A stretch of 64,000 nucleotides of DNA from Candidatus Uhrbacteria bacterium. GTDB lineage: Bacteria > Patescibacteriota > Patescibacteriia > UBA9934. Where the stretch lies: positions 7,294 to 71,293 of the forward strand of contig JABJOE010000006.1 of NCBI GenBank assembly GCA_018664485.1, written 5' to 3'. Position 1 is the first letter of the stretch. Every line of letters begins with the position of its first letter. Shown piece by piece: positions 2,723 through 46,810 of this stretch. The notes under the pieces were generated by a model. The model saw only the letters and a program-made list of their open reading frames with translations. It did not search any database and had not been told where the DNA came from. The position numbers and the translations under genes are program-made.

Positions 2723-3138
2723 ACTACTAGAACTTTATCGACAATATCATCTTGAATTTGAAACATCTTCTCCGCATCTTCTGACACCTCATGATCGTAT
2801 CCCAACACATGCAATATACCGTGAACGATGAGCATGGACACTTCGTCGCTTGCTCCGTTTGGCGCCTGCCTTTCCGCTTGTGCGTAGCAAATTGCAACGT
2901 CACCCAGAAGCTCTCCCGGGTCATGCATATAGGAAAACGAAAGCACGTCTGTAACTGAGTCCTTCCCTCGATACATCCGGTTTAATTTATGTATCTCACG
3001 TTCATCGACAAATCGCAAAGCGATAACTCCGTCCGCTTTTTGTGAATCGTTCACCAAACGAACAATGTTATCAAATCTACCTTCTGCCAATTGCTGATCA
3101 GAAGTTAAAGCCTCCTGATTCACATCGAGCGTTATCAC
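2719..3138 (-). CDS. ybeY: Endoribonuclease YbeY (rRNA maturation factor).
   Basis: 139 aa. HGILHVLGYDHE metal-binding H3xH5xH motif. Confidence 0.85.
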   Translation of the reverse strand: MITLDVNQEALTSDQQLAEGRFDNIVRLVNDSQKADGVIALRFVDEREIHKLNRMYRGKDSVTDVLSFSYMHDPGELLGDVAICYAQAERQAPNGASDEVSMLIVHGILHVLGYDHEVSEDAEKMFQIQDDIVDKVLVV

Positions 3139-4142
3139 AAAGCGATAATGTAAAAACTATTGATTAGCATCTGGAATGTCTGGAGGAAGTCAACGGTAAC
3201 CTCATCATCCAAATCATACGTGAAAGAATAGAAGAAACTGTCAGTAACCACGACCGATGTCCGCTCATCGCTACTCATATAGACCACATAGCCCTCCTTT
3301 GTAAGGAGTTCAATTGACATTGGGAAAGACGTTTCGATTGCAGGCGTTATAACTATAGAAAAGCTTGCATTTGTATTTGTGCTAACGACTACTTCTTGTA
3401 CTCCTTCGGCTGGATCTACCGCTTCGCTCACATCCCAGCCGGTTGGATGCGTAAATCTAAATACTTCGTCTGAAGACACAAACTCTTCCACGGCTCCGGT
3501 GTCCAAAAGCGTTGCCCCTGAAGTGCTCAATGGACTGTAACGATGGAAAACTTCATTACCATCTAGGAATGAATCACCGTCTGAATCTGGGTTTCGATCA
3601 TCTGTACCGTACAGATCTTCCTCAACATCTGTAAGGCCATCACTGTCGGTATCAACGCCAGGTCCCGGCTCTACAACATCTTCTGGGCGATCATCTTTTG
3701 AATCGCATACGTCACCCTTATCATCGTCGTCTATATCAGATTGGCTGGCGTTTGCATCTTCTGGACAGTTATCTTCACTGTCAATAATTCCATCTCCATC
3801 GATGTCGTCTGTCACCTCCTCTTCTTCTACGTTTAGAGATTGCACTACAAAATACCCAACCACAGCAAGTACAGTGATCAGAACTATTCCAACACCCAAA
3901 ATAATGAAAGGTGCCTTGCTTTTCTTTTTTGGCACAGGCTTTGGTGCAGGTTTCGGTTTTGGAACTGGTTTCGGCTTCGGCACAGGCTTAGGTGCTGGCT
4001 TTGGAAGTTCTTTCACCGTCGCCTTCTTCTGCGCGAATGATGCTGGCATTACATGAATTTCAACATCTGAAAGAAGCGACTTGCGCTCTTTCTCCTGCTT
4101 TGCTAGCTCTTCAGGTTTCATGTTTTTACCAGACTTCTTCAT
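3135..4142 (-). CDS. Membrane-anchored protein with a Pro/Lys-rich spacer and thrombospondin-type-3-like Ca-binding Asp repeats.
   Basis: 335 aa. PKPAPKPVPKPKPVPKPKP low-complexity segment, one TM helix (FIILGVGIVLITVLAVVGYFVV), then DGDGIIDSEDNCPED / DTDSDGLTDVEED / DSDGDSFLDGNEV DxDxDG repeats. Confidence 0.6.
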   Translation of the reverse strand: MKKSGKNMKPEELAKQEKERKSLLSDVEIHVMPASFAQKKATVKELPKPAPKPVPKPKPVPKPKPAPKPVPKKKSKAPFIILGVGIVLITVLAVVGYFVVQSLNVEEEEVTDDIDGDGIIDSEDNCPEDANASQSDIDDDDKGDVCDSKDDRPEDVVEPGPGVDTDSDGLTDVEEDLYGTDDRNPDSDGDSFLDGNEVFHRYSPLSTSGATLLDTGAVEEFVSSDEVFRFTHPTGWDVSEAVDPAEGVQEVVVSTNTNASFSIVITPAIETSFPMSIELLTKEGYVVYMSSDERTSVVVTDSFFYSFTYDLDDEVTVDFLQTFQMLINSFYIIAL

Positions 4143-4151
4143 AAAAAACGT

Positions 4152-4883
4152 CTATGGTTGATCAGGAATCTCGAACAGTTTTCCGTCACCATTTGGATTA
4201 AATCCACCTGCTACTTCTTGACCATCTAAATATCCATCTCCATCTGTATCAGCTTCAAGAGGATCTGTTCCGTAAACCTGAACCTCTTCACGATCTCCAA
4301 GTCCGTCTTTGTCTGTATCTAACTCGGAAGGGTCGGTACCCGCTACGATTTCTTCTGCGTCCGTTAGACCGTCACCATCGGAATCTACTTCCTCGGTTTC
4401 TTCCTCCGGATCTTCATCTTCAATAACCTCATCGTCCACAACTTCGTCATCTACCACCTCATCGGCAACCACTTCGTCATCTACTACCTCTACTGTTTCT
4501 TCATCGATAATCTCATCATCGATTGTAGATGGGCCAAAAATCAATGCATACGCAAGCCACCCTGCAACACTAATAATTACAAGAGCAACAATAACGATTA
4601 ATAGAATCTTACCAAACCCTGACTTACGTTTTGGCATCATTGGTGGTGCTACCGGGGACCCACCTGCGGACGGTGGGACTGGTACTGGCGCGCCCGTTGG
4701 TGCCTGTGCCACGGGAGCTGGTGCCGGAGTTGGCACGGGAGTAGGTACTGGCGCCGGTGCCGGGGTTGGCGCAGGTGCTGCGGCCGCTACTGGCAAATTC
4801 ACCGGAGCATCAAACATATCTTCAACGGGTGGTTGAGGTGCCGCTCCTGGTTTTGGTGTCTGGTCATCGAACATAATTAACAA
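4152..4883 (-). CDS. Membrane-anchored protein with a Pro/Ala-rich N-terminus, an acidic (DEVV)n spacer and a C-terminal thrombospondin-type-3-like repeat module.
   Basis: 243 aa. TM helix ILLIVIVALVIISVAGWLAYALIF. C-terminus DSDGDGLTDAEE...DTDKDGLGDREE...DTDGDGYLDGQEVAGGFNPNGDG. Confidence 0.6.
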   Translation of the reverse strand: MLIMFDDQTPKPGAAPQPPVEDMFDAPVNLPVAAAAPAPTPAPAPVPTPVPTPAPAPVAQAPTGAPVPVPPSAGGSPVAPPMMPKRKSGFGKILLIVIVALVIISVAGWLAYALIFGPSTIDDEIIDEETVEVVDDEVVADEVVDDEVVDDEVIEDEDPEEETEEVDSDGDGLTDAEEIVAGTDPSELDTDKDGLGDREEVQVYGTDPLEADTDGDGYLDGQEVAGGFNPNGDGKLFEIPDQP

Positions 4884-4907: not shown

Positions 4908-5852
4908 CTACTCGACTTCCGCTTCGGCCAAAGGATCAAACCCACCAGCGACTTCGTCTCCATCGGAGTAACCGTCACCATCTGTGTCAGCATTCGTTGG
5001 ATCAGTCTCATAATCGCGCAATTCATCATAGTCAGTCAGACCATCTGAATCTGTATCAACCATATCATCGCTCGTGCCGGCCTCACCTTCTTGAAGTAAA
5101 TTCAGTCCGTCACCGTCTTCATCGATTGATGAAAACATGTCCTTACATGACTCAATTGCAGAAGATGTAGCCAGCCAATTGCAAGCAGTTATATTACCAA
5201 CAATTACAGCTTCTTCCAGATCATTTTGGTCATTACACAGTGTGACATCTACTCCGCTCTTATTACAATTTCCGGATGAAGCTGCGTTAGCGCTTATAGC
5301 TAGCTGACAGCGACCAACCACACTCTCGTCATTCATTTTACTGCAGTCATCATACTCAAGCGAATCAACGATCGACTCAAACGAAACTGAATCGAAACAA
5401 TCATCTTGAGACTCACCTTCTAATAACTGACACACATCCGTATCGTCAGTTTCTTTCGCGATAAATAGAATACAATTCTCTGCAGCATCATCACTCGCGG
5501 ACTCAAGACACACAGACGGCTCCATGAGTTCTCGAGCGATGTCCGTCCAAACATGATCTACACAATACTGTTCATCCTCTTCCTCCTCGCATTCCTTAAG
5601 GTCTGCCTTAATCAATTCGTATACCTCTGAAATCTCATCGTTCGTCATCTCTTGTACGCTTGACCCGAGAAGTGCGCGAACACCCCAAACTGCCAACAAT
5701 GCAACTAGTATCAATATAAGAATTACAACAATGTACCGGACCAAAGGTCTATGAACTGGAGGTTGCGACTCACCCGTTCCCGATACCTCTACCGGCGCAA
5801 CTGGCTGTCCAGATGCATCAAGTTCATAAAATTGTTGATCTTTTGATTCCAT
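4908..5852 (-). CDS. Membrane-anchored Cys-containing protein with a C-terminal thrombospondin-type-3-like repeat module.
   Basis: 314 aa. TM helix YIVVILILILVALLAVWGV. C-terminus DEDGDGLN...DTDSDGLTDYDE...DTDGDGYSDGDEVAGGFDPL, the same terminal motif as 4152..4883. Confidence 0.6.
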   Translation of the reverse strand: MESKDQQFYELDASGQPVAPVEVSGTGESQPPVHRPLVRYIVVILILILVALLAVWGVRALLGSSVQEMTNDEISEVYELIKADLKECEEEEDEQYCVDHVWTDIARELMEPSVCLESASDDAAENCILFIAKETDDTDVCQLLEGESQDDCFDSVSFESIVDSLEYDDCSKMNDESVVGRCQLAISANAASSGNCNKSGVDVTLCNDQNDLEEAVIVGNITACNWLATSSAIESCKDMFSSIDEDGDGLNLLQEGEAGTSDDMVDTDSDGLTDYDELRDYETDPTNADTDGDGYSDGDEVAGGFDPLAEAEVE

Positions 5853-6032: not shown

Positions 6033-9000
6033 TTACGGTTCGCAATACCTGAATCTCATATCATCAAGCGAGACCGTTCCACCGCTATCATTGTCATCAA
6101 ATGAAATTCGAATTGGAATCTCCTGTGAGTTCTCGCCGTCACACGCAAACCCTGCGGGCCACGGAATCTCTACGTCGTCCCCCTCTGTAACGTTTCCACT
6201 TACAGCCTCACCGTCAATTACGTACGTGAAACGAATCGATACGATTGAATTTACAATCTCTTCATAGATCTCCTCCAACTCATCGGCTGATGAACCGTTA
6301 TGAGCATAGTCAACATCATTGTCATCATTCGGGTTACCAGAAGACCAACATGCCATTTGATCGATCAAATCAAGATCAACATAATCAGCGGCACAAGTTT
6401 CAGATGTAGCCGCACGCGCTACTGGGATCTCGACTAATTCAAGCGCGAAGTCGGCGACAGACTCAGCTATAGACATAACTTTCCATTCCTTGATATTCCA
6501 GGAGATACGTACAGGTGAAATCCATGGAGAGTATAACGTCTCTGCTGGACAGTCGAACGGACAGTCCGCGTATGTCTCTCCCACATCACAACTCCCATCA
6601 TTATTACATGAAGACGTACCGGAACCACTACCTGGGTTACATGTAGCATCACAGCCACCGCATGTCGTTATGTCAGCTACACCCCCTTCAGCATAACAGT
6701 CATACGTAGACACGCCATAGTATCCCGAACAACACTCCCATGAAATAACGCAGCTACTACTACAGCTAGATATATCTGAGCCGGTATCACCATCACAAGT
6801 TTCACCGTCTGCAGTATTTGTATATTCGTCACCACACTCGGATTCCTGACAGTCGGTAGCAGGATGATCATCTTCATCAGCTTCTTCGTCATAATTACAG
6901 TCTGCAGTTTCCGTTCCGCCTGAATCACACTCCTCTTCGCCATTAATTACTCCATCTCCACAAACCGGAGAGGTACACTCGTTGGTACAATCATCTTCGT
7001 CTACATCATTTCCATCATCACACTGTTCATCTGCAACATCATCGACTACTCCGTTTCCACACAAGGAATCCATCCACTCCTCCTCGTCCATCCAACCATC
7101 CTCCGTTCGATAATCATCGCAGAATGCATCTTCTACTGGCGACACTTCACTGTCAGACCCTGAATATAGGGCGACTGTGTAAATCTCGACCCCGTCATCC
7201 TTTAGCTGACATGCCATGAGTGCCGGGTCGATCTGTGACGCACCACAACTCTCACAACTCCATAAACCATCCGTCATCAATACAACAATTTGACGATCAT
7301 CGGTGCTAGAATAAGTAGTAAACGCTGTCTGAGCAGCCTTAAGTCCGTAGTAAGTATAAGTACCACTGCGTGCAATGTATGAAGCGACCTCAGACTGTGC
7401 ATATACGCTATTGTCTGCATCATAGAAGAAGCCATCGTCGACATTTGAAGCGTATGTATATTCAACTTCCTCAACCGCTCCACACGTCTCCGTATCTGGA
7501 TCACAATCAGAGTCTTCCATATAGTTGGTGAATCCAATGAACCCAATTTCTACGCCACTACCGAGACCTTCAAAGATTCCGTCAACCGAAGTCTGTAGAG
7601 AGTCGATCGTCGTATCCATTCGAGTTTCACCTTCACATTCAACAGACTCATCCTCTTCACATGTTGAGTCATAATGACAGCTTGTACCGTCGTCAGCACA
7701 AGTACCATCCCAGACGTATGCCATTGATCCAGACATATCCGTTGAGAAGATAATCTTTGTGTCTGGAATATCGAATTCGTAATCAACGTCGGCAGTTAAC
7801 CTTGTAGCTACAGTACACGCTGGGAAATAGACAGTCGCTGAGTTTCCGTAAGTAAGCAATGTTCCACTGACATCAGCATCGTATGAAATCATTTCGATTT
7901 CATTACTTCGTCTTGCGCCCAGCTCGTTAGTCTTCATCAAGAGTTGGTCGTTCTCGTAGGTAAACGGACAAGTAGACTCGCAACCATCTGCACAACTCGG
8001 AAGAATACATTCGCCATCTCCGTCGTCGTCTTCGCAGCCACTATCATTAAGGCACATCAGCCCATTATTATCACCACCATTACAGACACCCACATTGGAA
8101 CATCCATAATATGCCAAACTGTCAGGCCCCACGATTACAGCACCTTCGTCTTCTCGATCACACATTCCATACACGTTACCCTCGGGATATAACGATCCGT
8201 CCAACTGAGCGTACCAATAAGGTAGGTCGGTTCCATCACAAACTTCTTCATCTTCTATTATTGTATCTCCACAAAATGCTCCGGAGTACGTTACTTGAAC
8301 ACATGAATCGTTACAGTAAGAACATGTTGAGTCGTATTGAGAATCGCAAACCACTCCATTATCTGACCCTTCATCACATTGCTCTTCGCCATCATAAAGA
8401 TATCCATCTCCACAAACATTTAACTGACACTCGGTAGTACAGTCATCTGTAGAGTCATCGTTTCCGTCGTCACACTCCTCACCATCATCAACAACTCCAT
8501 CTCCACAATCGGATGATGCCACACAGCTAACACCCTGCCAGAATGCCGTTGTAGACCAAGGACTATTCCATCCACAAGTCTCACCACCTTCACCGTCATC
8601 GGCACAAGTGATAGTTCTAGTTGTTGGGAATGTTGAAGTTGAGCATACTCCGTCGTCCGTTCCACAATATGAGTTAGAAGTACACGGATAACCGATCAGA
8701 CTTTCAGTACCGGCCAAACATACTGTTGTTATCTCACATGCCTCAGACCATGACGAAGAACTATCTCCACATACCGCGCTGTCGCAGTCGGCATCGTCTT
8801 CACAAGCAGCACCTTCGTCAGTACCACCTACACATAATTCACCATCCCATGAGTCACTATTTCCATCACATACCTCTCCCTCACCATCATCAACTTCTCC
8901 GTCTCCACAGAATGAAGCGGCTCCTGAACAATCCCAGGCACAACTGCTATTAGGGTTTGAATTGTATGTTGAGTTTAAGTCAGTACATGCTGAACCTCCG

Positions 9001-12000
9001 TAGTTTAATCCTGACACTGAGCTTGATCCACAGTCACAAAGCTCTCCACCTGCAAGCGACCCATCTCCACAACTAAATGTAGAAGCATAAGTACAGTCAT
9101 TGTCACAGAATCCATATCTTCCGTTATATGAACCGTCGTCACATGTTTCACCAGTATCAATCACTCCGTTTCCACACTCAAACGCTTCGCATGTTGCGCC
9201 GTCTAGATCTTCACCGCCCAAACAGTCACTTGCACATGTCTGCGAGATTGAACCGTCAATATCATTTGTAGCGTCTCCGTCTCCGTCTGAGTCAACCGAA
9301 GCATCAGAGTCACAAGTAGCAGCGTCCATCTCCTGTCCGATTTCACAAATCTCAGTACCACCTATGACGCCATCTCCACAGATCGTCTCATCACCCCACC
9401 TTGTATTTGCACAGAAATACGATGGCGATGCGAAACCGTCACCACTTCCAGTCTTTGCATAAACCTGGAAGTTGTAGCTGTCAGATGTGTCCTGATCAAG
9501 ATCTTCTGTCCACGGAGTTCCGTGGAATTCCAACTCAGCACCCATGTAATATCCACCCTTACCATAAGCGCGGTAGTGGTAAACATTAGTCTCACGGTTA
9601 GGACAGAGATATTCTCCGTTAGTCTGATTCACACATGTATCTGCATCGTAATCAGTGTAATGACCATCTTCTCCACAGTTCACATATGCGTTTAGCGGAT
9701 CTGAAGGAGGCTCTTCTCCAAGTTCAGATCGGAGCTGTTCATTCCAAGAGCTCCACGCGGAAGAACTTAATGAAGCCACAAACGTTCCAGACTCAAGCTG
9801 AGGCGTTGCAGGAACACATTCTTCTGAATCTGGGCATTGACTATCACTTGTACATGTTTGAGAAGTTGTGTCGGAACAATATCCGTTTACATCTCCGTAG
9901 TCTTCGATCATTGCCGCGAGATCAGTAAGGTCAGTCAAACGAGTCATGTCACGCATGACCTTTGCAGCCTGATCGTCACATCTCTCACTATTCGCCCAAT
10001 CACAATCCTGGTCAGATACACATGTGTCATCCGTATATGAACCACCTGAGTCCATGCACAATGCCGTATCATCAAAGTTAGTATTAAATTCAAGGTTTGA
10101 AATCAACTGATTGTAGACTTCAACAGTCTCAGATGAAGCCCCCGAGTTGTAAGAGATAACAAACATATCCGAATACAACACAGAAGATGTCCTGTTCGGG
10201 AACGACACATAAGTAGTACGCCCATCTTGAACCGCCTTATATCCGCCAGCTACTGCAATTTCTGAAGGTGAACCAGCAAAACCTTGCTCCGTGTACCACG
10301 CCATTGGGCTTAGGTACTCTGAGTTTGAAGCAATACGAATTCCGATAGCGTCTCCCGTTGACTCGCCGTCAGCAAGTAGACGGAAGAAGTACTCTTTAAT
10401 GACATCATCAGTTTCAGTGTCTTCTGTCAGAACAACATCAACCTCTGGGAGATCATCATCTTCTGTTTCAGCTCCACTGTCCATACAATAGTATGTGGAG
10501 AAGTTCATCCAACCGATACCAGCTCTTGCACCATTTCCAGTACCAGTACTGTCATCAATGAATGGGAAGTCAGTAATTGCTGGCCATGGATTTTCACAAA
10601 CCATAGCTGTAGCAGATGTCGTTCCACTATGAGACTCGCCTTCAGTCTCTGACTGTACATCAACAGTAATAGTTGCAGTAGCGGTGATATTCACCTCTCC
10701 GTTTTCACCGGCCGCCGCATAGTTGGAGTCAGCCGTTCCGTCAGTGCTTGAACTCTCACTTTGCTGCGCTAGAATCTCCTCACCGGCGTCATCAGAACTC
10801 CAAGTAGACCACGTCCAATCATAGACGCTGCTAATAGGTTCAATTTGCTGTTTGATTCCAGTCTGATAAGAGAAACCGGCAGCCGTGTAGTCATGATCTT
10901 CTGAAACCTGCGTATAAACCCCAGGACTATCTTCGTCTGAGTCGGTTACCTCAACTACATCCATCAAACAAAGTTCATCATATGTTGTGAAATCAACATG
11001 ATCACTTTCCATTTCCACTCCATAGAATGACAACGCGCCCTCCTTATCTACATCAGTGTCAGACAAATCATCACCAACTACATATATTGTGTAGTCAGAA
11101 AGAGCTTCAAGGACAGTATCGTAATGGAATAAAACCTTGTAATCTCCGCTCTCCTCTAGGCTTTGAGATACGCTCGTAATTTCAACTGCACAATCTCCGC
11201 TTGACTGAGCTTGTACAACTCCAGTTCCAAATAGAGCACCAACACGGAAGAATGCACGCGCGAGCCAGCTATTTCCAACAGTTGCAGTTTCGGCATGTGC
11301 AATAGATGTATGTGTTTCCGGACAAGAACCGGAACCTATATCTAGAACAAGATACATGTTCTGTATATCCTCACCATCATCCAAATCGGTATAGAAGAAA
11401 CTTCCTAAGTCCATCTTTTCACTGAACAATCCGTAAATTGCAGCGTTACGGCAAGCGTCTGATCCGTTTGGATAAAGGCTTACCTCTGGACGCGCCATAC
11501 AACATGAGTTGTCCGCAGGTCCGTAATCACTTTCACAATCACTATCAACTTCCGCTACACATGAAAGATAAAGCGCAGTGCTGTCTGAAACGTCCTCATA
11601 CGTAACTTCAATCAAAGTTTCTGCCAATCGGCTATCTGTATCAACCTGCTCGGCAGCAGATGTCATGATCTCAACAAGCTGAAGAGGATCGATTATACCG
11701 TCACCTCCAGTTGCGTCATAAGTAGGATCTTCACATGATTCGAACTCTCCGGTACCAGCCTCACCGTCTCCACAGACTGACGGACTTGCATATGAGGTTG
11801 ATGCACCCTCCCAAAGACATTCATCACTACACCCTTCTGTTCCGTCACAATCCTCTCCCTCACCATATGCCCCTTGGTCAACGGCGTTATCTCCACAATC
11901 TCCATAATCTCCATCTGCACCTTCACGCAAACATATTGATGAACAACCGTCTTCGTCTTCAACTCCCCAGTCATCGCAGGTTTCGTAAGGTGTATCAATT

Positions 12001-15000
12001 ACTCCATCTCCACACTCGGCAGCGACTGACGTAAGTGCTGTAGAGCCTTCATTTAAACAAATTGCAGAACAACCATCACCAGATGAAGTACCTCCGTCAT
12101 CGCAATCCTCACCACCAACACTGTCGGAATGACCAACGCTTCCGTTTCCACAAGTAGCGCCCGCAGCTGCAGACCCTTCGTTGATACAAGATGAAGAACA
12201 TCCATCTCCGTCGGTAATATTACTGTCATCACACTCTTCTCCCGCATATGAGGAGTCCACGTCTACAACGCCATCTCCACAACAACCAGATCCAACGGCA
12301 TCACATGTGTCAGCGTAGGTACAGTCTGCATCAATAGCACAAACATCTCCACTCACAGAACACACACCTTCCTCTGAATCATCCGCGATTTCACATGTCT
12401 CGGCACAATCTTCATCGTCTGAACATGAGTCACCGCTTGAAGCACAGGTAAATGAACAGCTATTAGTTCCTTCCGCTAAACACTCTGAAGAGCATCCGTC
12501 TCCGTTTGTAACGTTTCCGTCATCACAGTCTTCTCCAGTTTCAATATCACCATCTCCACAAATTGCAGTGTAGACCTCGGAACCACCAGCAAGACACGAC
12601 TCGGTACAACCAGGCGCTATACCGTCTAAATCAACATCAAATAGTGAGGAGTTTATTTCAGTCCACTCTGCAACATCAACGTCATCAATAGGAACTGACC
12701 ATTCATAGTCATAGCTATAAGCAGATAACTGCTGACCAGTGGATGAACATTCATCCTGCTGACCATATGGCTGTACAAAATATTCAACAGTTTCACCAAT
12801 TGCCTCGGCTGTATAATTCTCAGGTGAAACTTCGAGCCGATCAACAGTACACAGAGACTCATCATCTTTTGTTGAAAATACCCAAGAGAAATCATCACCG
12901 TAGTTAGTGTCAGTTAGAGCAACCCCACTACTAGACTCAACGTCTCCGGAAATAATCACACGGAAATATGTATCAGCTGTCAGCTGGGCGTCCCATCCAG
13001 ATTCAGTAATTGTAAGTACAAATTCCTCACACTCAGACGATGTACAGCCAGCAGTGACGTCTACCTGAGTCAGTCCGACACACAACTCATTAGAACACTC
13101 GTACATGGTCACCATACCTGTGTCCTGAATTGAGCTGTCCATGTCGATATTGAAAGATGCACCGATCCCACTGTTAACACAAGCAGTATTACAGTTCGGA
13201 TAGTAGCTTGTTACATACGGATCTCTGTAGTCAATCTCAAGATCAGCGTCATCACCAATTCCGCTATCGTCTTCAATGGCATTTACAACACTCTCCCCTT
13301 CCGCAAGAGCTTCCGCTACAGCACAGGAGTCGTTCAAACTTGTATCATCACAGATTCCTTCCGTAAGTGACGCGTATGAAGATGTGTCTAAACTCCATGT
13401 CCATGCATATGTAGCACCACTTAACACCTGACAATCAGCAACAGGAAGCGCTTCATATTCAGTTGTTTCACCCTGCTCCTCAAGCAATTCAGAACTAGGG
13501 CTCACGATAACTCGCTCAATTTCACAATCGGCTGAGCTGTCATCTGTTAGGAACTCCCAGGTAACATCGCTATCCATCTGCACACCTTCTTCTGATTCAA
13601 CATCGCTTGAAACGGTTACTAAGTACCGTGTCTCGGTTGAAAAGCCACTGTGATCAATAGTGAAAGACGTAGCTGTTGAGCTTGATGTAATAGTTGGGGC
13701 GTCCATTGTGAATGTAGAGACGTCTTCACATGAAGAATCCGCACACTCTTCCACCGTAATATATTCAGATGTGAGGAAGTCTTCGTCCATAAGCTCCGTA
13801 AACGTTGCGCGAATCACAGCGTCAACACATACCTCATCTGTAAATCTCTCGTTTGGAACAGCTGAAATATCATCATCAGAACACTCAACTACGATTCCTG
13901 GCGTCTCAGGGATTGATCCTGTTCCAAAATACCAACTATAACCACCGTCCACAGTAGCCTCTTCGTCTTCCTCATCATCAGCACCAATCTCAAAATTTGA
14001 AGAGTTACTATCCTCCCCTTCATTATTCGTTATAAAAACTGGACCTGTTACCGCATCTGACGGAACAGATGTAACTATTTCGTCGTTTGACCAATCGTCA
14101 TCCTCAACGCTCGCGCTTGAACCGTCGTAGAATTCAATTGACCCTGTGCTTGATCCGAAATTGTCTCCATAGATAGTTACTGTGTCTCCAGACTCGCCGT
14201 CGTCTGGATCAATAGCACAAATACCAGGGGTTGGATCATCTTCTGTTACTTCAAAATCTACAGCATCGGACTCACCGCCGCTCCGCTTTTCAATATACAA
14301 CTCATAATCCCCAGCCTCCACGTCGTCTTCATTTGAAAATTCTTCCGGAACGATAATGACGATCTCAGAAGCACTCCAAAAACTTTCAGAACATGCGTCC
14401 GGGAACTCAATACTTCCCTGTGCTGCACCTAACGTTGGATGTTCAAACCAAACACTTCCAACGGAAGTTCCAAATCCAGAACCTGAAATGGTTACGTATT
14501 GTCCGATACCTCCCTCTTCCGGATCGATTGCGGAAATGATTGGTGAGTCATCATCCGTATCTTCCACTCCAAAACTGACAGTATTAGATTCAACTCCGTC
14601 AACCGTAATTGAAACGTCATAATAATCATTCACAGTAACAGACGGAACCGTTGCAGCTACATCAGTTGCGGACCATGACGTGTAAGAACCAGCCTCAGTC
14701 TCATCCTCATCTTCAGCTGTAAAAGTAATAACTGAATCACTCTGCGAATCTCCGAAATTCGTTCCCTCGATCGCAAATGCATCATTCACTTCAGCCTCGT
14801 TCGGCGAAATATCACACAAATTAGGACGAACGGTAGTATTCACGTCAAAGTCATCAATGATAGCACCGTTATCGTCGTCAGTTGTTTCCTCGTAGTCATT
14901 GCGAGTTACGATTGTAATTGGACCGTCTCCAGCACCTTCTGGCACCTCAACAATCACTTCATCATCACTCCAACCGTCTCCACATGAAGGAATCGTAGCC

Positions 15001-16385
15001 TCAACAGTTGAGCCGGCTCCATCGTCAAAATATACAGTACCTTCAACACTACCGAATCCGTCACCAGAGATAGTAACGAATGTTCCTTCAATTCCGTTAT
15101 CAGGTGACACGCTTTCAATTTCTGGATAGGACACACAAGTTCCTTCCAAACATGTACCCGACTCACAATCGCTATCTTCTTCACAACTTGAACCGTCACA
15201 AGACCCGCAATCCTCACCTCCACAATCCTCACCCTCTTCGTCTTCATCCTCTGTATCGTTGAAACAGTGAGCTGCAGTTGCCAAAATGCTGATTGAGTCA
15301 GTATCTGTGTTTCCTGCAATATCCGTCGCAGTCACTTCAAGCGTATATCTTGTTCCAGCCTCTAAATCTTCTGTAGAGTATGTCGTTTCAATAGTTACGT
15401 CCGACAAATCATCACCTTCAGCCGGAACACTATCAAACAGTACCTCTTCATCATCGTAGAAGTCAGCGGTTGCAACCTCGCTGTCATCTGTCGCTGTAAC
15501 CTGAACAAGAGTAGATGAATCTATTGAAATACGTTCACCGCTGTCTGGATATGTGAGTTCAACTTCAGGATCTTCAGTGTCTACTAATTCACCACTTGTG
15601 AAGCTTGAAGTACAACTATCATCCGAACATACGAGTGAGCTTCCTGAAGTACTTTCAATGTCATCACCAACCTCAACCGTGAATGCAGTATTTTCGTCGA
15701 AACAGTATCGATCATCGTTTGGCTCAGGGCATGCTGCGTCTGGTACAAACGTAATCTTGTTAGACGTAACGCTCAATGTTCCATCTACCTCTTCGCCAGT
15801 TTCATCATTTGTAATTGTAACGTTACCTGCGACCGTATCTTCATCAACTGATCGAGAGAAAGTAATTTGAACTTGAATATTTCTAATAACAACCTCGCCT
15901 TCTGGCGAGAAGTCGGTAACTGCAAAAGAAGTAACGCTCGATCCAGAACATCCTCCCAAACAGCTATCGCTACCGCTATCACTGCCAGAACCTGATCCCG
16001 ATCCACCACTTCCAGCTTCCAAAATAGACCCCAATATAAAGGATGTGATCGCAAATGAAAGCATTATAATGGTAAGTCCGACAATACCATTGAGCAATAT
16101 CTTTTTAGCGCTTTCAACCTTACTCGCATCACCACCGGCTGTCATCCAAACAAATCCACCCCATATAATAATGAGCACCGCAATGATTCCGAGCGTTCCT
16201 AAGAAAATTCGGATTATATTTGCAATGGTAACTTCCAGAGATTGGGTTGCAAGCCCTGACGCATCGCCTAACTCATCTAATGAGTCCTGTTGTGCATGCG
16301 TTACCTGCGGTATAGCCAAAAGCCCTCCCGTCATTATAAACAAGATGGCAAAGGCCGCGAATAAATTACGAAGTTTTGAGATCAT
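6033..16385 (-). CDS. Giant (3450 aa) cell-surface adhesin-like protein. Architecture: signal peptide plus two-helix membrane hairpin anchor, Gly-Ser linker, bacterial Ig-like domain, about 4 IPT/TIG-like domains, arrays of Myxococcus-type Cys-rich repeats, and a vWA domain with MIDAS.
   Basis: Single uninterrupted ORF. N-terminus MISKLRNLFAAFAILFIMTGGLLAIPQVTHA, then IIRIFLGTLGIIAVLIIIWGGFVWMTAGGDASKVESAKKILLNGIVGLTIIMLSFAITSFIL, then GSGGSGSGSGSDSGSDS. Repeated P..G..GT.VTI.G.GFG motifs (IPT/TIG). More than 15 copies of CGDG(V/S)(I/V)D.GE.CDDGN....DGC...C (Myxococcus cysteine-rich repeat). DMSGSM (DxSxS MIDAS) ...VVLMTDG (vWA) near nt 7180-7790. Confidence 0.85.
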   Translation of the reverse strand: MISKLRNLFAAFAILFIMTGGLLAIPQVTHAQQDSLDELGDASGLATQSLEVTIANIIRIFLGTLGIIAVLIIIWGGFVWMTAGGDASKVESAKKILLNGIVGLTIIMLSFAITSFILGSILEAGSGGSGSGSGSDSGSDSCLGGCSGSSVTSFAVTDFSPEGEVVIRNIQVQITFSRSVDEDTVAGNVTITNDETGEEVDGTLSVTSNKITFVPDAACPEPNDDRYCFDENTAFTVEVGDDIESTSGSSLVCSDDSCTSSFTSGELVDTEDPEVELTYPDSGERISIDSSTLVQVTATDDSEVATADFYDDEEVLFDSVPAEGDDLSDVTIETTYSTEDLEAGTRYTLEVTATDIAGNTDTDSISILATAAHCFNDTEDEDEEGEDCGGEDCGSCDGSSCEEDSDCESGTCLEGTCVSYPEIESVSPDNGIEGTFVTISGDGFGSVEGTVYFDDGAGSTVEATIPSCGDGWSDDEVIVEVPEGAGDGPITIVTRNDYEETTDDDNGAIIDDFDVNTTVRPNLCDISPNEAEVNDAFAIEGTNFGDSQSDSVITFTAEDEDETEAGSYTSWSATDVAATVPSVTVNDYYDVSITVDGVESNTVSFGVEDTDDDSPIISAIDPEEGGIGQYVTISGSGFGTSVGSVWFEHPTLGAAQGSIEFPDACSESFWSASEIVIIVPEEFSNEDDVEAGDYELYIEKRSGGESDAVDFEVTEDDPTPGICAIDPDDGESGDTVTIYGDNFGSSTGSIEFYDGSSASVEDDDWSNDEIVTSVPSDAVTGPVFITNNEGEDSNSSNFEIGADDEEDEEATVDGGYSWYFGTGSIPETPGIVVECSDDDISAVPNERFTDEVCVDAVIRATFTELMDEDFLTSEYITVEECADSSCEDVSTFTMDAPTITSSSTATSFTIDHSGFSTETRYLVTVSSDVESEEGVQMDSDVTWEFLTDDSSADCEIERVIVSPSSELLEEQGETTEYEALPVADCQVLSGATYAWTWSLDTSSYASLTEGICDDTSLNDSCAVAEALAEGESVVNAIEDDSGIGDDADLEIDYRDPYVTSYYPNCNTACVNSGIGASFNIDMDSSIQDTGMVTMYECSNELCVGLTQVDVTAGCTSSECEEFVLTITESGWDAQLTADTYFRVIISGDVESSSGVALTDTNYGDDFSWVFSTKDDESLCTVDRLEVSPENYTAEAIGETVEYFVQPYGQQDECSSTGQQLSAYSYDYEWSVPIDDVDVAEWTEINSSLFDVDLDGIAPGCTESCLAGGSEVYTAICGDGDIETGEDCDDGNVTNGDGCSSECLAEGTNSCSFTCASSGDSCSDDEDCAETCEIADDSEEGVCSVSGDVCAIDADCTYADTCDAVGSGCCGDGVVDVDSSYAGEECDDSNITDGDGCSSSCINEGSAAAGATCGNGSVGHSDSVGGEDCDDGGTSSGDGCSAICLNEGSTALTSVAAECGDGVIDTPYETCDDWGVEDEDGCSSICLREGADGDYGDCGDNAVDQGAYGEGEDCDGTEGCSDECLWEGASTSYASPSVCGDGEAGTGEFESCEDPTYDATGGDGIIDPLQLVEIMTSAAEQVDTDSRLAETLIEVTYEDVSDSTALYLSCVAEVDSDCESDYGPADNSCCMARPEVSLYPNGSDACRNAAIYGLFSEKMDLGSFFYTDLDDGEDIQNMYLVLDIGSGSCPETHTSIAHAETATVGNSWLARAFFRVGALFGTGVVQAQSSGDCAVEITSVSQSLEESGDYKVLFHYDTVLEALSDYTIYVVGDDLSDTDVDKEGALSFYGVEMESDHVDFTTYDELCLMDVVEVTDSDEDSPGVYTQVSEDHDYTAAGFSYQTGIKQQIEPISSVYDWTWSTWSSDDAGEEILAQQSESSSTDGTADSNYAAAGENGEVNITATATITVDVQSETEGESHSGTTSATAMVCENPWPAITDFPFIDDSTGTGNGARAGIGWMNFSTYYCMDSGAETEDDDLPEVDVVLTEDTETDDVIKEYFFRLLADGESTGDAIGIRIASNSEYLSPMAWYTEQGFAGSPSEIAVAGGYKAVQDGRTTYVSFPNRTSSVLYSDMFVISYNSGASSETVEVYNQLISNLEFNTNFDDTALCMDSGGSYTDDTCVSDQDCDWANSERCDDQAAKVMRDMTRLTDLTDLAAMIEDYGDVNGYCSDTTSQTCTSDSQCPDSEECVPATPQLESGTFVASLSSSAWSSWNEQLRSELGEEPPSDPLNAYVNCGEDGHYTDYDADTCVNQTNGEYLCPNRETNVYHYRAYGKGGYYMGAELEFHGTPWTEDLDQDTSDSYNFQVYAKTGSGDGFASPSYFCANTRWGDETICGDGVIGGTEICEIGQEMDAATCDSDASVDSDGDGDATNDIDGSISQTCASDCLGGEDLDGATCEAFECGNGVIDTGETCDDGSYNGRYGFCDNDCTYASTFSCGDGSLAGGELCDCGSSSVSGLNYGGSACTDLNSTYNSNPNSSCAWDCSGAASFCGDGEVDDGEGEVCDGNSDSWDGELCVGGTDEGAACEDDADCDSAVCGDSSSSWSEACEITTVCLAGTESLIGYPCTSNSYCGTDDGVCSTSTFPTTRTITCADDGEGGETCGWNSPWSTTAFWQGVSCVASSDCGDGVVDDGEECDDGNDDSTDDCTTECQLNVCGDGYLYDGEEQCDEGSDNGVVCDSQYDSTCSYCNDSCVQVTYSGAFCGDTIIEDEEVCDGTDLPYWYAQLDGSLYPEGNVYGMCDREDEGAVIVGPDSLAYYGCSNVGVCNGGDNNGLMCLNDSGCEDDDGDGECILPSCADGCESTCPFTYENDQLLMKTNELGARRSNEIEMISYDADVSGTLLTYGNSATVYFPACTVATRLTADVDYEFDIPDTKIIFSTDMSGSMAYVWDGTCADDGTSCHYDSTCEEDESVECEGETRMDTTIDSLQTSVDGIFEGLGSGVEIGFIGFTNYMEDSDCDPDTETCGAVEEVEYTYASNVDDGFFYDADNSVYAQSEVASYIARSGTYTYYGLKAAQTAFTTYSSTDDRQIVVLMTDGLWSCESCGASQIDPALMACQLKDDGVEIYTVALYSGSDSEVSPVEDAFCDDYRTEDGWMDEEEWMDSLCGNGVVDDVADEQCDDGNDVDEDDCTNECTSPVCGDGVINGEEECDSGGTETADCNYDEEADEDDHPATDCQESECGDEYTNTADGETCDGDTGSDISSCSSSCVISWECCSGYYGVSTYDCYAEGGVADITTCGGCDATCNPGSGSGTSSCNNDGSCDVGETYADCPFDCPAETLYSPWISPVRISWNIKEWKVMSIAESVADFALELVEIPVARAATSETCAADYVDLDLIDQMACWSSGNPNDDNDVDYAHNGSSADELEEIYEEIVNSIVSIRFTYVIDGEAVSGNVTEGDDVEIPWPAGFACDGENSQEIPIRISFDDNDSGGTVSLDDMRFRYCEP

Positions 16386-16423
16386 GATATTAGGGAGGAG
16401 TTGGAATGAAAATTACATTTAAG

Positions 16424-18319
16424 CTAACTACTGAAGTAGGAACAGTCAGTTGATTGAGCCTCACCGTTACAACAGAAAGGTTCTGTGTCACTCGTTCCAC
16501 AAGAACCACCCGAATCATCCGGCCCTTCTCCTGGAACGTAACAGTTTTGATATTGATTCCTCACTCCTTCCGTTACATCCACTGAGTAAAGATAGCTAGT
16601 TCCGTCGGTGTAACACTGCAGATCAGTATTACATGCCTCGCCCGACTCACAATCACCGTCTACAGCACAACTCTCACCCGTAAGTGCATCGTCGGTGGAA
16701 GCGAGGAATACTCCGTGCCGGATACCTGCCTGAGTTGCAACTGCAGTCTGCTCGGACGATACAACTTCATCGCCGTACTCATCGATTGAGTCAGTGCTAA
16801 CTACGTACCACATTTCGTGTGACGGGTTTGGTGTCGCGACAATATATTCACTCGACATTGTGTTACTCATCATGATGGAGTCAAACAAAACCGTAATCTC
16901 CTGATCCAACTCGACATTCTCCTCTAAAATATCTGGACCAATTGATTCAATCTCCGGCGCTTCCAAATTTACGTCGTCAGATGTTGAAAATGACCAGTCA
17001 TAGTCGTCTCCAGCTTCACCATCACCGTCACCGTCCAATGCATTTGCTGATACATCAACGATTCCGTCATATGGTGTCTCGGCCTGCGGCGCCGCATCTT
17101 CGTCAACGGTAGCGGCAATAACATCGACCGTAATATCTTCAAGTCCAGGCAAACAATAAATGAGTTCACCACACGAGTTTTCTCCACATTCATCGTCGGT
17201 AGTGTACGTAACAGTTTTGTAACCATTTGAAATAGCGTACTCACCAGTTAGCGGAACTGAGTCACCAATATGCGTTTGGATATTGCTAAATCCACTACCA
17301 CTCTCACGAGTTCCGGTTGACACTGTCGGATCCACAGCTTCTGAGAATGTAATTTGCACAACAATGTTTCTGTCATACTCGTCACCTGCTTCAGGCGACA
17401 CGCTCACAACATATGGCGGCGTTAGGTCAATTTCAGTTCCAACTTCGAATGACCACTCATACCCGCCAGTGTTTACCACCTGGTCGCCATCCTTATCTCC
17501 AACATCCTCCGAAATGAATACCGTGTACGAAGTATCTTCTGTTGAAGATCCAAGATAATCCTCTGGTGAGAAGCTAAACGTCTTTAGATCTTCCGTAAAC
17601 GTCACGCTCACTTCTTCAGATGTCAGGATACCTTCTTCTCCGTCCTCAGATCGATAAATCAAAATGTTGTCTGTATTTAATGTTGTCGCAACCGTATCGT
17701 CACTCGTATCATCCGGTGTACCGTTGGTGTCGTAGCCATCGATAAGCCCCTCAATGTCCATCGCACTCTTAAACGTAACTAGAATATTGATATTTCTCGC
17801 AGCACCAGTCGCATTGCGCGCTGGGAAGTGGTCGCGGATTCCACCCTGCCCAAGAGATCCAGAACTTCGCTCGATTGATGCCGAGCTATCACTTCCGCTT
17901 CCAGAACCGCTTCCGCCACCTCCACCGATCAATGCACCCGTAAGCGCGCTAATGATAAAAGCTGTGATCGCATAAGATGCCATAACTATCACAAGTCCGA
18001 CAACTCCGTTGATCATCCACTTCTTTGCTTTTTCAACTTTGTCAGCATCACCACCGGCTGTCATCCAAAGGAAACCAGCGTAGATGATAATGATCAGAAG
18101 AACGATTCCAAGTGCACTCAAGAATACACTTACTAACGTCCCTATAACTTCTGGCAGGCTTGCGGTACTAAGACCTGACGCACCTCCGGCTACAGCGAGC
18201 TCCGACGATTGCGCAAGAACAGCGCTCGGAATAAACGCAAAAATACCGGTGACCAGAGTGATCCCGAATAGGAGAACAAGCGCTTTTGATAAACGCATCG
18301 TTATTTGATTCACATGCAT
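16424..18319 (-). CDS. Paralog (631 aa) of the giant surface protein, with the same N-terminal anchor module and Ig-like domain but a short Cys-containing ectodomain.
   Basis: N-terminus MRLSKALVLLFGITLVTGIFAFIPSAVLA, then ...YAGFLWMTAGGDADKVEKAKKWMINGVVGLVIVMASYAITAFII, then GGGGGSGSGSGSDSS. A 25-nt identical stretch (18045-18069 vs 16126-16150) encodes the WMTAGGDA loop. The TPPYVVSVSPEAGDEYDRNIVVQITFSEAVD bacterial Ig-like motif matches the giant's ISPEGEVVIRNIQVQITFSRSVD. Confidence 0.8.
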   Translation of the reverse strand: MHVNQITMRLSKALVLLFGITLVTGIFAFIPSAVLAQSSELAVAGGASGLSTASLPEVIGTLVSVFLSALGIVLLIIIIYAGFLWMTAGGDADKVEKAKKWMINGVVGLVIVMASYAITAFIISALTGALIGGGGGSGSGSGSDSSASIERSSGSLGQGGIRDHFPARNATGAARNINILVTFKSAMDIEGLIDGYDTNGTPDDTSDDTVATTLNTDNILIYRSEDGEEGILTSEEVSVTFTEDLKTFSFSPEDYLGSSTEDTSYTVFISEDVGDKDGDQVVNTGGYEWSFEVGTEIDLTPPYVVSVSPEAGDEYDRNIVVQITFSEAVDPTVSTGTRESGSGFSNIQTHIGDSVPLTGEYAISNGYKTVTYTTDDECGENSCGELIYCLPGLEDITVDVIAATVDEDAAPQAETPYDGIVDVSANALDGDGDGEAGDDYDWSFSTSDDVNLEAPEIESIGPDILEENVELDQEITVLFDSIMMSNTMSSEYIVATPNPSHEMWYVVSTDSIDEYGDEVVSSEQTAVATQAGIRHGVFLASTDDALTGESCAVDGDCESGEACNTDLQCYTDGTSYLYSVDVTEGVRNQYQNCYVPGEGPDDSGGSCGTSDTEPFCCNGEAQSTDCSYFSS

Positions 18320-18465
18320 GTTGCTATATAGGTTGTACGAAGTTGTTCCCTCGCACCTACATTATAAAGGAACGCGAGTATGAACGCGAACGGGGTGTGG
18401 AATAAACTCAACACCCGTCCAACCACACAGATCAGACGGGTGAGAATATATAGATTTTTTAAAAA

Positions 18466-18837
18466 CTATTTTGTTCGCTTTCGAACAGCGCCATGAATAA
18501 TTCCAGCGATTACAAGGTCGATCAACACGAACCAAAGGAATGAATCTCCGCTAATTCCCCAGTACGAAATTTCAGCGATCCATGAATAAAGTCCGATCGC
18601 CGCGTCAAGCAACACGAGTACAAAGAAGAACCATAGAAGATCCGACTTGCTATGTTTTCCAACTGCCTGCCAGTTTAAAAGCGCAAGCGCCGCTGTACCA
18701 ACGAGTGCTACAGCTGAAATCCATAACTCAACTTCGAATGCACCAATAGTAGCTGGCGCCTGAAACGCTAAACGCATTGCGTGTAGCGCTGCCACGGAAG
18801 TGAAAACCGCCGTGTTAACGATATGTATTTTTTTCAT
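18466..18837 (-). CDS. Hypothetical small integral membrane protein (about 4 TM helices).
   Basis: 123 aa, highly hydrophobic segments. No recognisable family. Confidence 0.5.
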   Translation of the reverse strand: MKKIHIVNTAVFTSVAALHAMRLAFQAPATIGAFEVELWISAVALVGTAALALLNWQAVGKHSKSDLLWFFFVLVLLDAAIGLYSWIAEISYWGISGDSFLWFVLIDLVIAGIIHGAVRKRTK

Positions 18838-19827: not shown

Positions 19828-20445
19828 CTAGTTAAGCTGCAATGTAATCTCGCCAGAAACCGTATTTACTCTCACGGCAAAAGAAAACTCGTCGTCAACA
19901 CATTCATTCGTGCAGTACGAGTGCACACCTTCATACGTTGCAATGTACAAACCGTCTACCGTCTCTTCCGCTACCAAACACGCACTACCATCTAGGTGAG
20001 CGTACAGTCCTATGATTTGCGTACGCAGCAAAGCGTCAACAATCTCGCTTGGAGAAACTTTTTCGAGCAACTCTTGAGTCGCTGTCGTAATTACAACTTC
20101 ATCTTCCCCTTCACCAAAACCAGTAGCACTATGAACTGAAACATCACCAAACATCTGCTCATCAACGAAAATTTCCCCCGTCGAATCCTGCCACAGTACT
20201 TGCTCATCGCCGAGTGTCCAATCATTTAAAATATTTAACGGCGCCAGATCGGTACCACTAATTTCCCGCGCCGTAATTAATGTCTGCTCGTAACGGTCGA
20301 AAGAGTCTTGTGTAATTGATTCTGCTAAGCACTCACCTTCCCCAGACAACACAACATCCCCAGATTTATTGTCCGAGTAATAAACAGCTAGCCCGATAAT
20401 GAGAATAAAAGCTAGAACGCCGATTGCTAAAATCATTTTTTTCAT
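19828..20445 (-). CDS. Hypothetical secreted or membrane-anchored protein.
   Basis: 205 aa. N-terminal signal/anchor MKKMILAIGVLAFILIIGLAVYY. Start is 1 nt from the Nudix gene's end. Confidence 0.55.
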   Translation of the reverse strand: MKKMILAIGVLAFILIIGLAVYYSDNKSGDVVLSGEGECLAESITQDSFDRYEQTLITAREISGTDLAPLNILNDWTLGDEQVLWQDSTGEIFVDEQMFGDVSVHSATGFGEGEDEVVITTATQELLEKVSPSEIVDALLRTQIIGLYAHLDGSACLVAEETVDGLYIATYEGVHSYCTNECVDDEFSFAVRVNTVSGEITLQLN

Positions 20446-36660: not shown

Positions 36661-36690
36661 GCGGCCTTCTTCTTTTTTGCAGGTTTTTTA
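36640..36690. terminator. Bidirectional terminator shared by the convergent topA and 36657..39140 genes.
   Basis: aagaaggcc-taagc-ggccttctt perfect hairpin flanked by an A-run and a T-run. Both stop codons lie within or next to it. Confidence 0.5.
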
Positions 36691-44905: not shown

Positions 44906-45015
44906 GCATTACGCCTGTAGCCATGCGACCGAGTGGTCCTTGAGCACAGCCGTCAATTCCCACACCTCGTCTAACGGGGGGTGGGAATTTACATTTAAAA
45001 AAACATCTGCATTGG

Positions 45016-45045
45016 TTGACGTTTTGAGCGATTTATGATAGTATC
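45016..45045 (+). promoter_or_regulatory. Near-consensus sigma70 promoter upstream of 45114.
   Basis: TTGACG, 17-nt spacer, TAGTAT. Downstream AAAGAGGAG Shine-Dalgarno sits 7 nt before the ATG at 45114. Confidence 0.45.
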
Positions 45046-45113
45046 TACAGTCGTATCTTCGGCAAACAATACACGCGCAGCAAATCGAATTACCCTACAA
45101 AGAGGAGCCTGCA

Positions 45114-45833: not shown

Positions 45834-45948
45834 AACCACCGCCAACTCCTCGGCAAACAGACTGCCCCGTATCGACCCCTGGTCTTTGCGGGGATTCGTG
45901 CATCAATAAACAATAAAAATAGAAATCTCCAAATAAACCTTGAAGCAA

Positions 45949-46230
45949 CTACTTCCAGCGCTCCAACCTTGGGATACCTCGCGTTAAAATCCAGGCAAGA
46001 ATACCATTCATACCTTTCTCTTTCATTTTTTCAATACAGAGTATTTGCATTTGTTTTGGGTCTGTAATTTCAGGGCTTAAAAATGGTCCGTCTTTAAAAC
46101 AGTACGAGCAGTACATATCACTCTTCGCCCCATCTTTTTCAGATCCCCCTCCCTTAGGATCACCACTAAATGGCATCCCGCAACTCTGACAAAATTTATT
46201 CTTTTTCATATACGCAAAGTATATCAGCAC
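45949..46230 (-). CDS. Zinc-ribbon domain protein.
   Basis: 93 aa. CQSCGMP...CSYCF Cys pairs (C-x2-C ... C-x2-C). Confidence 0.6.
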   Translation of the reverse strand: MLIYFAYMKKNKFCQSCGMPFSGDPKGGGSEKDGAKSDMYCSYCFKDGPFLSPEITDPKQMQILCIEKMKEKGMNGILAWILTRGIPRLERWK

Positions 46231-46676: not shown

Positions 46677-46753
<77 letters not shown>

Positions 46754-46758
46754 GGCGC

Positions 46759-46787: not shown

Positions 46788-46810
46788 GCAAACGTCCTTT
46801 GAGCGCACCG

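Follow-up and report, generated by a model that had tools for sequence, protein, structure and literature searches.

A VirB2-type pilin module as predicted anchor of a giant vWA-tipped surface protein in a conserved five-gene cassette of Uhrbacteria

A 2025 survey of patescibacterial type IV secretion systems (T4SS) described VirB2-like pilins and tandem 'VirB2 arrays' (Quinonero-Coronel et al., PMC12102498); it treats VirB2 homologues as small proteins and makes no mention of fusions. In Southlakia epibionticum, the one genetically tractable patescibacterium, epibiotic growth requires a T4SS-cluster pilin array and several adhesins (Wang et al. 2023, PMC10633639), and Paceibacterales that grow on methanogens show high expression of proteins with T4SS-pilin domains (PMC10936435). 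Here we analyzed a stretch of 64,000 nucleotides from Candidatus Uhrbacteria bacterium (contig JABJOE010000006.1; hereafter the window), in which two neighbouring genes, named G and S, encode proteins of 3450 aa and 631 aa that both begin with a module of this pilin family. What is new is a VirB2-type pilin module as the predicted anchor of a giant protein tipped by a von Willebrand factor A (vWA) domain, set in a conserved five-gene cassette of Uhrbacteria; its role as an adhesin, like every functional statement made below on G, S and the cassette, is one that we infer.

A first-pass annotation of this DNA, made without database searches, was aware of no described system with exactly this architecture. 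This stands as far as papers are concerned, as no description of the giant pilin fusion, of the cassette or of its fixed position in candidate phyla radiation (CPR) bacteria or Uhrbacteria was found in the literature. It does not stand for the proteins themselves, which form a widespread, vertically inherited family that is auto-annotated in public databases under names such as 'pilin', 'Ig-like domain-containing protein', 'cysteine-rich repeat protein' and 'IPT/TIG domain-containing protein'. The sequence of S matches HON52_02105 from Candidatus Uhrbacteria bacterium (NCBI) at 100% identity, and the first-pass guess of a CPR-like genome was thus right; the Uhrbacteria fall within class ABY1 of GTDB.

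The pilin module of S and G

The two genes and the parts of their N-terminal modules are as follows.

6033..16385, minus strand: gene G, predicted giant pilin-anchored surface protein, 3450 aa; open reading frame (ORF) with ATG start, collinear orthologues
16290..16385, minus strand: signal peptide of G, aa 1-32; hydrophobic stretch at aa 5-29, predicted cleavage after THA
16035..16247, minus strand: VirB2-like T4SS_pilin hairpin of G, aa 47-117; PF18895, E 6.7e-8, 32.9 bits
15936-16016, minus strand: Gly-Ser linker of G, aa 124-150, after the hairpin
16424..18319, minus strand: gene S, 631 aa; ORF with ATG start, PF18895 and Big_5 matches
17957..18166, minus strand: pilin module of S, aa 52-121; PF18895, E 6.6e-10, 39.4 bits

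Both minus-strand ORFs are intact and co-oriented with an intergenic gap of 38 bp, just as the first-pass annotation had read them. The hydropathy profile and the alignment revealed in each N-terminus a signal-peptide-like hydrophobic stretch, followed by two hydrophobic helices (aa ~50-86 and ~95-125 in G) and a Gly-Ser linker, and the modules of the two proteins, rightly recognised in the first pass as shared, are 52% identical. In S the linker leads into roughly three Big_5 Ig-like domains and then a C-terminal domain that contains Cys. In BLASTP, S aligns with G at 33% identity over ~375 aa (E 9e-31), including the first Big_5 domain; the Ig-like domain that had been proposed as common to both is therefore real (Big_5 in both, E ~1e-15), and the paralogy runs through the first of these domains. 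A total of 340 homologues of S were obtained, ~600 aa in length and 47-70% identical, all of which carry PF18895 and PF13205.

Both proteins match Pfam PF18895 T4SS_pilin (VirB2/TrbC-like) above its gathering score of 26.6 and match the NCBIfam 'Mbov_0395 family pilin-like conjugal transfer protein' weakly, and some S orthologues also match PF04956 TrbC. The arrangement of the family, a signal peptide and two helices joined by a short polar loop, is present, the loop being GGDASKVESAKK. The inter-helix loop of the G hairpin, DASKVESAKK, is lysine-rich. Because this lysine-rich loop lies between the helices with acidic segments on both outer sides (positive-inside rule), and in view of VirB2/TraA biology, the hairpin of G would adopt an N-out/C-out topology with the loop in the cytoplasm; VirB2 and TraA are known to form a hairpin with both termini outside.

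The first-pass annotation called this module unusual and missed its link to T4SS, and neither point survived. An exhaustive search with a hidden Markov model (HMM) of the N-terminal module against 1.84 billion cluster representatives yielded 41,875 representatives at E<=1e-3 and 11,337 at E<=1e-10, and the module, which is that of PF18895, is very common in Patescibacteria. Among the best 150 homologues, 106 are single-module proteins in which the module is always N-terminal, and only 18 of these are short classical pilins, the other 88 being extended C-terminally (at least 2000 aa in 33 cases). The remaining 44 of the best 150 consist of tandem pilin modules; these 'poly-pilin' proteins, namely P0010 (1775 aa), P0012 (1147 aa), P0007 (820 aa) and 41 others, contain from two to at least nine tandem VirB2-like modules and may either be polyproteins or have arisen when gene calling fused pilin arrays. 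For short pilin homologues, the only genomic context obtained in the search for a T4SS was a 1.5-kb contig with three tandem pilins. No pilin-module gene besides S and G was found in the window.

In a tblastn search of plasmids, the S module is 46.8% identical (E 1e-4) to an 'Mbov_0395 family pilin-like conjugal transfer protein' of a Pontibacillus megaplasmid. The gene of this homologue stands 4 kb upstream of that for a 'VirB4-like conjugal transfer ATPase, CD1110 family', in a cluster that also encodes a large peptidoglycan hydrolase. As this cluster is a T4SS of the Gram-positive type, the module genuinely belongs to T4SS loci of monoderms. When PDB sequences were searched with a profile of the module, no solved VirB2/TraA relative came up, only a chance match to PsbM (E 0.47). 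The T4SS link runs through the Mbov_0395-family homologue and not through solved pilin structures.

By sequence, G belongs to the PF18895 pilin-domain family. S and G share with the patescibacterial VirB2/TrbC pilins the signal peptide and two-helix hairpin above the Pfam threshold, the tandem, co-oriented two-gene 'array' and the patescibacterial host. However, described VirB2 pilins have ~100-150 aa (~70-150 aa when mature) and their arrays often lie beside virB4, whereas S and G have 631 and 3450 aa, the module making up the first ~4% of G and ~20% of S, and neither is linked to virB4; the S-G locus stands beside no T4SS gene, in a fixed housekeeping neighbourhood. Counts of the abundant 'T4SS pilin' domain would accordingly need rereading, as many matches are likely to be N-terminal anchors of large surface proteins instead of pilus subunits, and this cassette at least is not linked to virB4.

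Stalk and head of G compared with known adhesins

Beyond the linker, G is a mosaic of domains, listed here from the N-terminal to the C-terminal end.

15351..15923, minus strand: Big_5 (aa 155-263) and Big_7 (aa 273-345) Ig-like domains; Pfam
aa 374-418, minus strand: small Cys-rich knot ahead of the TIG domains
13986..15128, minus strand: four IPT/TIG domains, aa ~420-800; PF01833
12606..13898, minus strand: block of Big_5-type and other Ig-like domains, aa ~830-1260, boundaries approximate; PF13205, two stretches, E 1.7e-11
11706..12578, minus strand: Cys-rich acidic repeat array 1, six units, aa ~1270-1560; TIGR02232, DUF4215, regular expression
10611..11588, minus strand: conserved block with no Pfam match, probably Ig-like to judge by its sequence pattern, aa ~1600-1925; 26-45% identity among orthologues
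9396..10613, minus strand: conserved central domain with no Pfam match, aa 1925-2330; PsbP/Mog1/LpqN-like alpha/beta sandwich, then a long helix and a sheet
8016..9380, minus strand: Cys-rich acidic repeat array 2, six canonical units and irregular Cys-rich spacers, aa ~2336-2790; DUF4215, regular expression
6036..7958, minus strand: C-terminal head, aa 2810-3450; vWA nested in a beta-sandwich (aa 2810-2872 and 3386-3450)
6339-7100, minus strand: lineage-specific insertion of ~250 residues interrupting the vWA, aa ~3096-3349, with three more Cys repeats

The HMM searches that had been proposed in the first pass returned matches for all three of the domain types named there, vWA, IPT/TIG and Cys-rich repeats. 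The four or so IPT/TIG domains correspond to four PF01833 stretches, above the gathering score in the whole protein (E 4e-17, 62.4 bits) as well as in the isolated segment (E 1.8e-24, 85.9 bits). The Myxococcus-type repeats are matched by NCBIfam TIGR02232 'cysteine-rich acidic repeat' (57.4 bits vs a cutoff of 20.8, five stretches, E 9e-16) and, on the isolated segment, by DUF4215 (37.4 bits), and a regular expression located 15 CGDG..E.CD units in three arrays, with six at aa 1276-1550, six at 2336-2670 and three at 3109-3190. G contains 21.7% D+E, 2.1% K+R and 178 Cys, and together with the hydrophobic hairpin this acidity and Cys content are as expected of an extracellular, oxidised, cation-binding protein. 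The surface location that had been claimed for both proteins is likewise what their domains, all of which were found, predict. G orthologues from other assemblies are less acidic, with 10-17% D+E.

The head has the Rossmann-like alpha/beta fold of vWA domains. Its metal ion-dependent adhesion site (MIDAS), a predicted metal site, comprises D2883-M-S-G-S, the T in SGTYT (~3009) and the D in LMTDG (~3039), and the DxSxS..T..D pattern is kept in most of 15 aligned orthologues; the intact DxSxS motif reported in the first pass was thus recovered, and its vWA assignment was borne out by a narrow Pfam match on an isolated segment. The closest solved structural matches of the head include tip adhesins of three pilus types, namely Mfa5, the group of SpaC, RrgA, GBS104 and PitA, and the modular pilin PilB of S. 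sanguinis. Across the 15 orthologues, aa 1-2900 of G are evenly conserved (30-60% identity), while identity in the vWA region is 10-30%, the insertion has an occupancy of ~0.3, and the last 100 residues are conserved again. Against its closest relative (69% identity overall), G is 63-85% identical everywhere but in the head, whose aa 2901-3000 reach only 35%. Of all parts of G the head evolves fastest, a pattern that fits an attachment device.

G resembles a fibrillar tip adhesin, yet it fits into none of the classes that have been characterised. As in the tip adhesins of sortase pili, its vWA is nested in a beta-sandwich; unlike SpaC, RrgA, GBS104 and PitA, and unlike Mfa5 of type V pili (6tnj), it has no sortase or type V assembly genes, and its anchor is N-terminal and in the membrane, whereas theirs are C-terminal, in the cell wall or by strand exchange of the lipoprotein type. 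No LPxTG-like sorting motif was found in G, which ends in ...MRFRYCEP, and it is therefore not a sortase-pilus adhesin. S. sanguinis PilB (PDB 7b7p), a modular minor type IV pilin, belongs to an unrelated class with a prepilin-peptidase signal and lacks the 2700-residue stalk, whereas G has a VirB2-like hairpin and a Sec signal peptide; as the first 60 residues of G contain no class III prepilin motif (G-F/M-T-L-x-E, conserved Glu5), G is not a modular type IV pilin.

The giant adhesins of type I secretion systems (T1SS), such as LapA, SiiE and MpIBP/RTX, have in common with G a very large, acidic, Ca2+-dependent Ig-like stalk and ligand-binding modules near the far end, which in LapA include a vWFA. 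However, G would be exported by its N-terminal Sec signal peptide, its stalk is a mosaic of distinct domains instead of near-identical tandem repeats, and its host is monoderm-like. No RTX GGxGxD nonapeptide repeats were found in G or S and no C-terminal T1SS signal in G, which, lacking RTX repeats, is not a T1SS adhesin. With the Myxococcus-type cysteine-rich acidic repeat proteins (TIGR02232/DUF4215) G shares its 15 CGDG..E.CDDGN..DGC..C units, but in G the repeat is only a spacer element, placed in three arrays inside a pilin-anchored protein.

The five-gene cassette and its possible roles

Downstream of G, three further genes encode membrane proteins with Ca-binding repeats.

4908..5852, minus strand: TSP3a, 314 aa, directly downstream of G; single-pass membrane protein with a Cys-rich ectodomain and bacterial TSP3 (Ca-binding) repeats; PF18884, E 4e-9
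4152..4883, minus strand: TSP3b, 243 aa; Pro/Ala-rich N-terminus, one transmembrane helix, acidic linker, three TSP3 repeats; PF18884, E 7e-19
3135..4142, minus strand: TSP3c, 335 aa; Lys/Pro-rich N-terminus, one transmembrane helix, TSP3-like repeats, C-terminal domain; PF02412, weak

One genome per GTDB species was scanned for the G central domain with a profile built from a four-sequence alignment, and 34 loci were detected. In essentially all of them the gene order is (HisRS)-YqeY-S-G-TSP3a-TSP3b-TSP3c-YbeY-DagK-FtsA, with all genes co-oriented, and the same arrangement, with FtsZ following FtsA, surrounds giants that are only 27-29% identical to G. Since order and neighbours are co-conserved across the loci, S, G and TSP3a-c form a five-gene cassette, vertically inherited and fixed in position over a deep clade. 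The homologue and synteny search suggested in the first pass thus placed the cassette at one position in 34 species-level genomes and enlarged the unit, which had been taken for two genes, by the three co-conserved TSP3-repeat membrane proteins. Most of the 34 loci come from records named Uhrbacteria or 'Patescibacteria group bacterium', with about ten from third-party annotation (TPA) assemblies titled 'uncultured Gammaproteobacteria bacterium'. One cassette-bearing TPA assembly is titled 'Candidatus Kapaibacterium sp.'. The oddly titled assemblies (within L005-L036) have the gene content and synteny of Uhrbacteria, suggesting that the titles are probably placeholder names or the contigs mis-binned.

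The window is ordinary chromosome, encoding FtsA, DagK, YbeY, YqeY, HisRS, signal peptidase I, LytR, EngA, DprA, TopA, RelA, ParAB and SecY. No VirB4, VirB6, PrgI or other T4SS gene was found in it, and in more than 35 related loci the surroundings of the cassette were likewise free of VirB4, VirB6 and PrgI out to 10 kb.

On balance, we lean towards reading G as a giant, Sec-exported, fibrillar cell-surface adhesin with a pilin-hairpin anchor and a variable MIDAS head. Judging by their signal peptides, G and S would be exported by Sec and cut by signal peptidase I, after which the VirB2/TrbC-type hairpin, its domain identity established and its topology predicted, would hold them in the cytoplasmic membrane. 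The ~3300 residues past the Gly-Ser linker, made up of Ig-like domains (Big_5, Big_7 and four TIG), the 15 disulfide-rich acidic repeats and the PsbP-like central domain, would form an extracellular stalk with a length on the order of 100 nm, presumably stiffened by Ca2+ and disulfides. At its distal end the vWA/MIDAS head, to go by its fold and motif, may bind an acidic ligand on another cell or surface in a metal-dependent manner, and the variation of head and insertion, which evolve faster than the stalk, could reflect tuning to different partners. S and the three TSP3 proteins are strictly co-conserved with G and would probably form a membrane-proximal base or partner complex. The domain identities, the occurrence of the pilin module in monoderm T4SS, the hydrophobic hairpin and acidic ectodomain, the MIDAS conservation, the contrast in conservation between stalk and head, the synteny and the literature on T4SS-cluster pilins and adhesins all support the adhesin, and G, with its integrin-like head, is on the strength of its sequence a good candidate for gripping a partner cell.

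Several observations weigh against this reading. The vWA match to PF00092 is marginal (24.7 bits vs a gathering score of 23.8, E 3e-5) and appears only when aa 2770-3120 are scanned alone, no vWA being reported by Pfam in the scan of the whole of G. Two of the 15 aligned orthologues depart from the MIDAS, P0129 being without the motif and P0018 having DVSQT, and the structural models, from which the insertion was left out, are moderately confident (mean pLDDT, the predicted local distance difference test, 61 and 73). Moreover, vWA domains are not confined to adhesins; as a core locus fixed in place next to ftsA-ftsZ, the cassette would suit a housekeeping envelope structure as well as a host-range determinant; and, to our knowledge, an episymbiotic life of Uhrbacteria has not been established.

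The pilin module could also mean what it means elsewhere, and a VirB4-type T4SS encoded at another place in the genome would then build S and G as modules into a VirB2-type filament, at its tip or interspersed, so that a vWA head on a conjugation-like pilus physically couples partner recognition to the T4SS conduit. We regard this as doubtful. PF18895 membership lies above the gathering threshold, the homologous module of Pontibacillus sits inside a monoderm T4SS cluster, and modular minor type IV pilins such as PilB, which bear a vWA module, offer a parallel. In the TraA/VirB2 filaments of F-type and T-type pili the termini of the pilin face outwards, which would in principle let a C-terminal fusion be displayed. 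Tandem VirB2 arrays are common in Patescibacteria (PMC12102498) and essential in S. epibionticum (PMC10633639). Yet a 3300-residue appendage on each subunit is hard to pack in a helical filament, T4SS genes are missing from the surroundings of the cassette both in the window and in related loci, and we know of no patescibacterium in which a T4SS pilus has been seen. The record of VirB4 points both ways: Table S1 of PMC12102498 includes three cassette-bearing assemblies, of which two are VirB4-positive, but VirB4 is listed for only ~11 of 19 named Uhrbacteria assemblies sampled from that table, and the cassette-bearing RIFOXYA2_FULL_40_9 is given as VirB4-negative, two points that are limited by the incompleteness of metagenome-assembled genomes. 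Equally doubtful is the wider proposal that in Patescibacteria the VirB2-like module serves quite generally to display large ectodomains or to incorporate them in a filament, with S and G as the first 'modular T4SS pilins'; among the 150 closest homologues 106 have a single module, and the C-terminal extensions that 88 of these carry (33 of at least 2000 aa) are consistent with a general display role. If the module does polymerise, no modular pilin of a T4SS bearing an adhesin would have been known before G, and partner recognition by a fast-evolving vWA head ~100 nm from the cell would be mechanically coupled to a secretion/uptake conduit of the kind through which auxotrophic patescibacterial cells are thought to feed.

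A little less probable again is a structural role in the envelope, in which the cassette would make a constitutive, acidic, Ca2+-crosslinked coat or a division or cell-shape scaffold, in which the vWA/MIDAS would serve self-association or cell-wall attachment. Such a role would suit the fixed position between SPase-HisRS-YqeY and YbeY-DagK-FtsA-FtsZ across deep divergence, with LytR nearby, the near-universal presence and evenly conserved stalk, the three co-conserved Ca-binding TSP3 membrane proteins and the extreme acidity of G. A self-assembly interface, however, would be expected to be conserved, whereas the head is the most variable part and carries lineage-specific insertions; its best structural matches are tip adhesins, and an anchor, a long stalk and a single terminal vWA make the layout of a fibrillar adhesin and not that of a lattice-forming S-layer protein. 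That the 10.35-kb ORF is a decaying pseudogene or a chimera of collapsed repeats, the latter a case that the first-pass annotation had named as refuting, we consider extremely improbable. Repeat-rich giant genes are often misassembled, and split G ORFs were seen in a few relatives (L021, L033), but repeat scans found no tandem DNA repeats in the G/S region, where the direct repeats are short (<=50 nt) and diverged (60-80% identity). G is collinear end to end with at least 15 independently assembled 50%-cluster representatives at 30-47% identity, and an intact G-type ORF of 3070-3661 aa occupies the same position in ~29 of the 34 species-level genomes; the existence of such collinear full-length orthologues effectively rules out the chimera.

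Patescibacteria make up a large share of bacterial diversity, and to the question of how lineages beyond Saccharibacteria find and hold their partners the G family brings a concrete, conserved candidate in Uhrbacteria. The family is easily recognised and combines a constant stalk with a fast-evolving MIDAS head, and the head could be expressed alone to fish for ligands or hosts.

Neighbouring genes and other features of the window

In this DNA and in the closest relatives (L001, L002, L005), the gene just upstream of S encodes a 123-aa multi-pass membrane protein with no Pfam match (18466-18837, minus strand), while in more distant relatives YqeY or an HflX-like GTPase abuts S instead. Scans for promoters and terminators gave nothing informative apart from a strong terminator-like hairpin upstream of S (18412-18442, minus strand; 13-bp stem with seven GC pairs), which stands between the 123-aa membrane-protein gene and the S start and suggests that S heads its own transcription unit.

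A very acidic protein of 686 aa (1.9% K+R; 22760-24820, plus strand) combines a BNR/Ycf48-like beta-propeller with a Big_13-like region. Its homologue is directly upstream of S in three relatives (L009, L010, L012), suggesting that it may be another cassette-linked surface component. The predicted extracellular proteins of the window, namely G, S, TSP3a-c, the 686-aa propeller and a 205-aa ORF (19828-20445), have 2-4% K+R and a pI near 4, values not shared by the cytoplasmic housekeeping proteins, and this acidic surface proteome may be an adaptation to a saline or marine habitat.

An ORF of 827 aa (36657-39140, minus strand) was considered as a VirB4 and ruled out, as it is acidic and of low complexity and contains no Walker A motif and no transmembrane helix. 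It has no Pfam match, is extremely acidic with a lysine-rich C-terminal tail, and is probably disordered. The GC content rises to 0.533 at 44001-46000, compared with ~0.45 elsewhere, in a segment with unannotated ORFs at 43907-44905 and 45114-45833, and three tRNA genes follow at 46680-47205; the segment at 44001-46000 may be a small acquired one.

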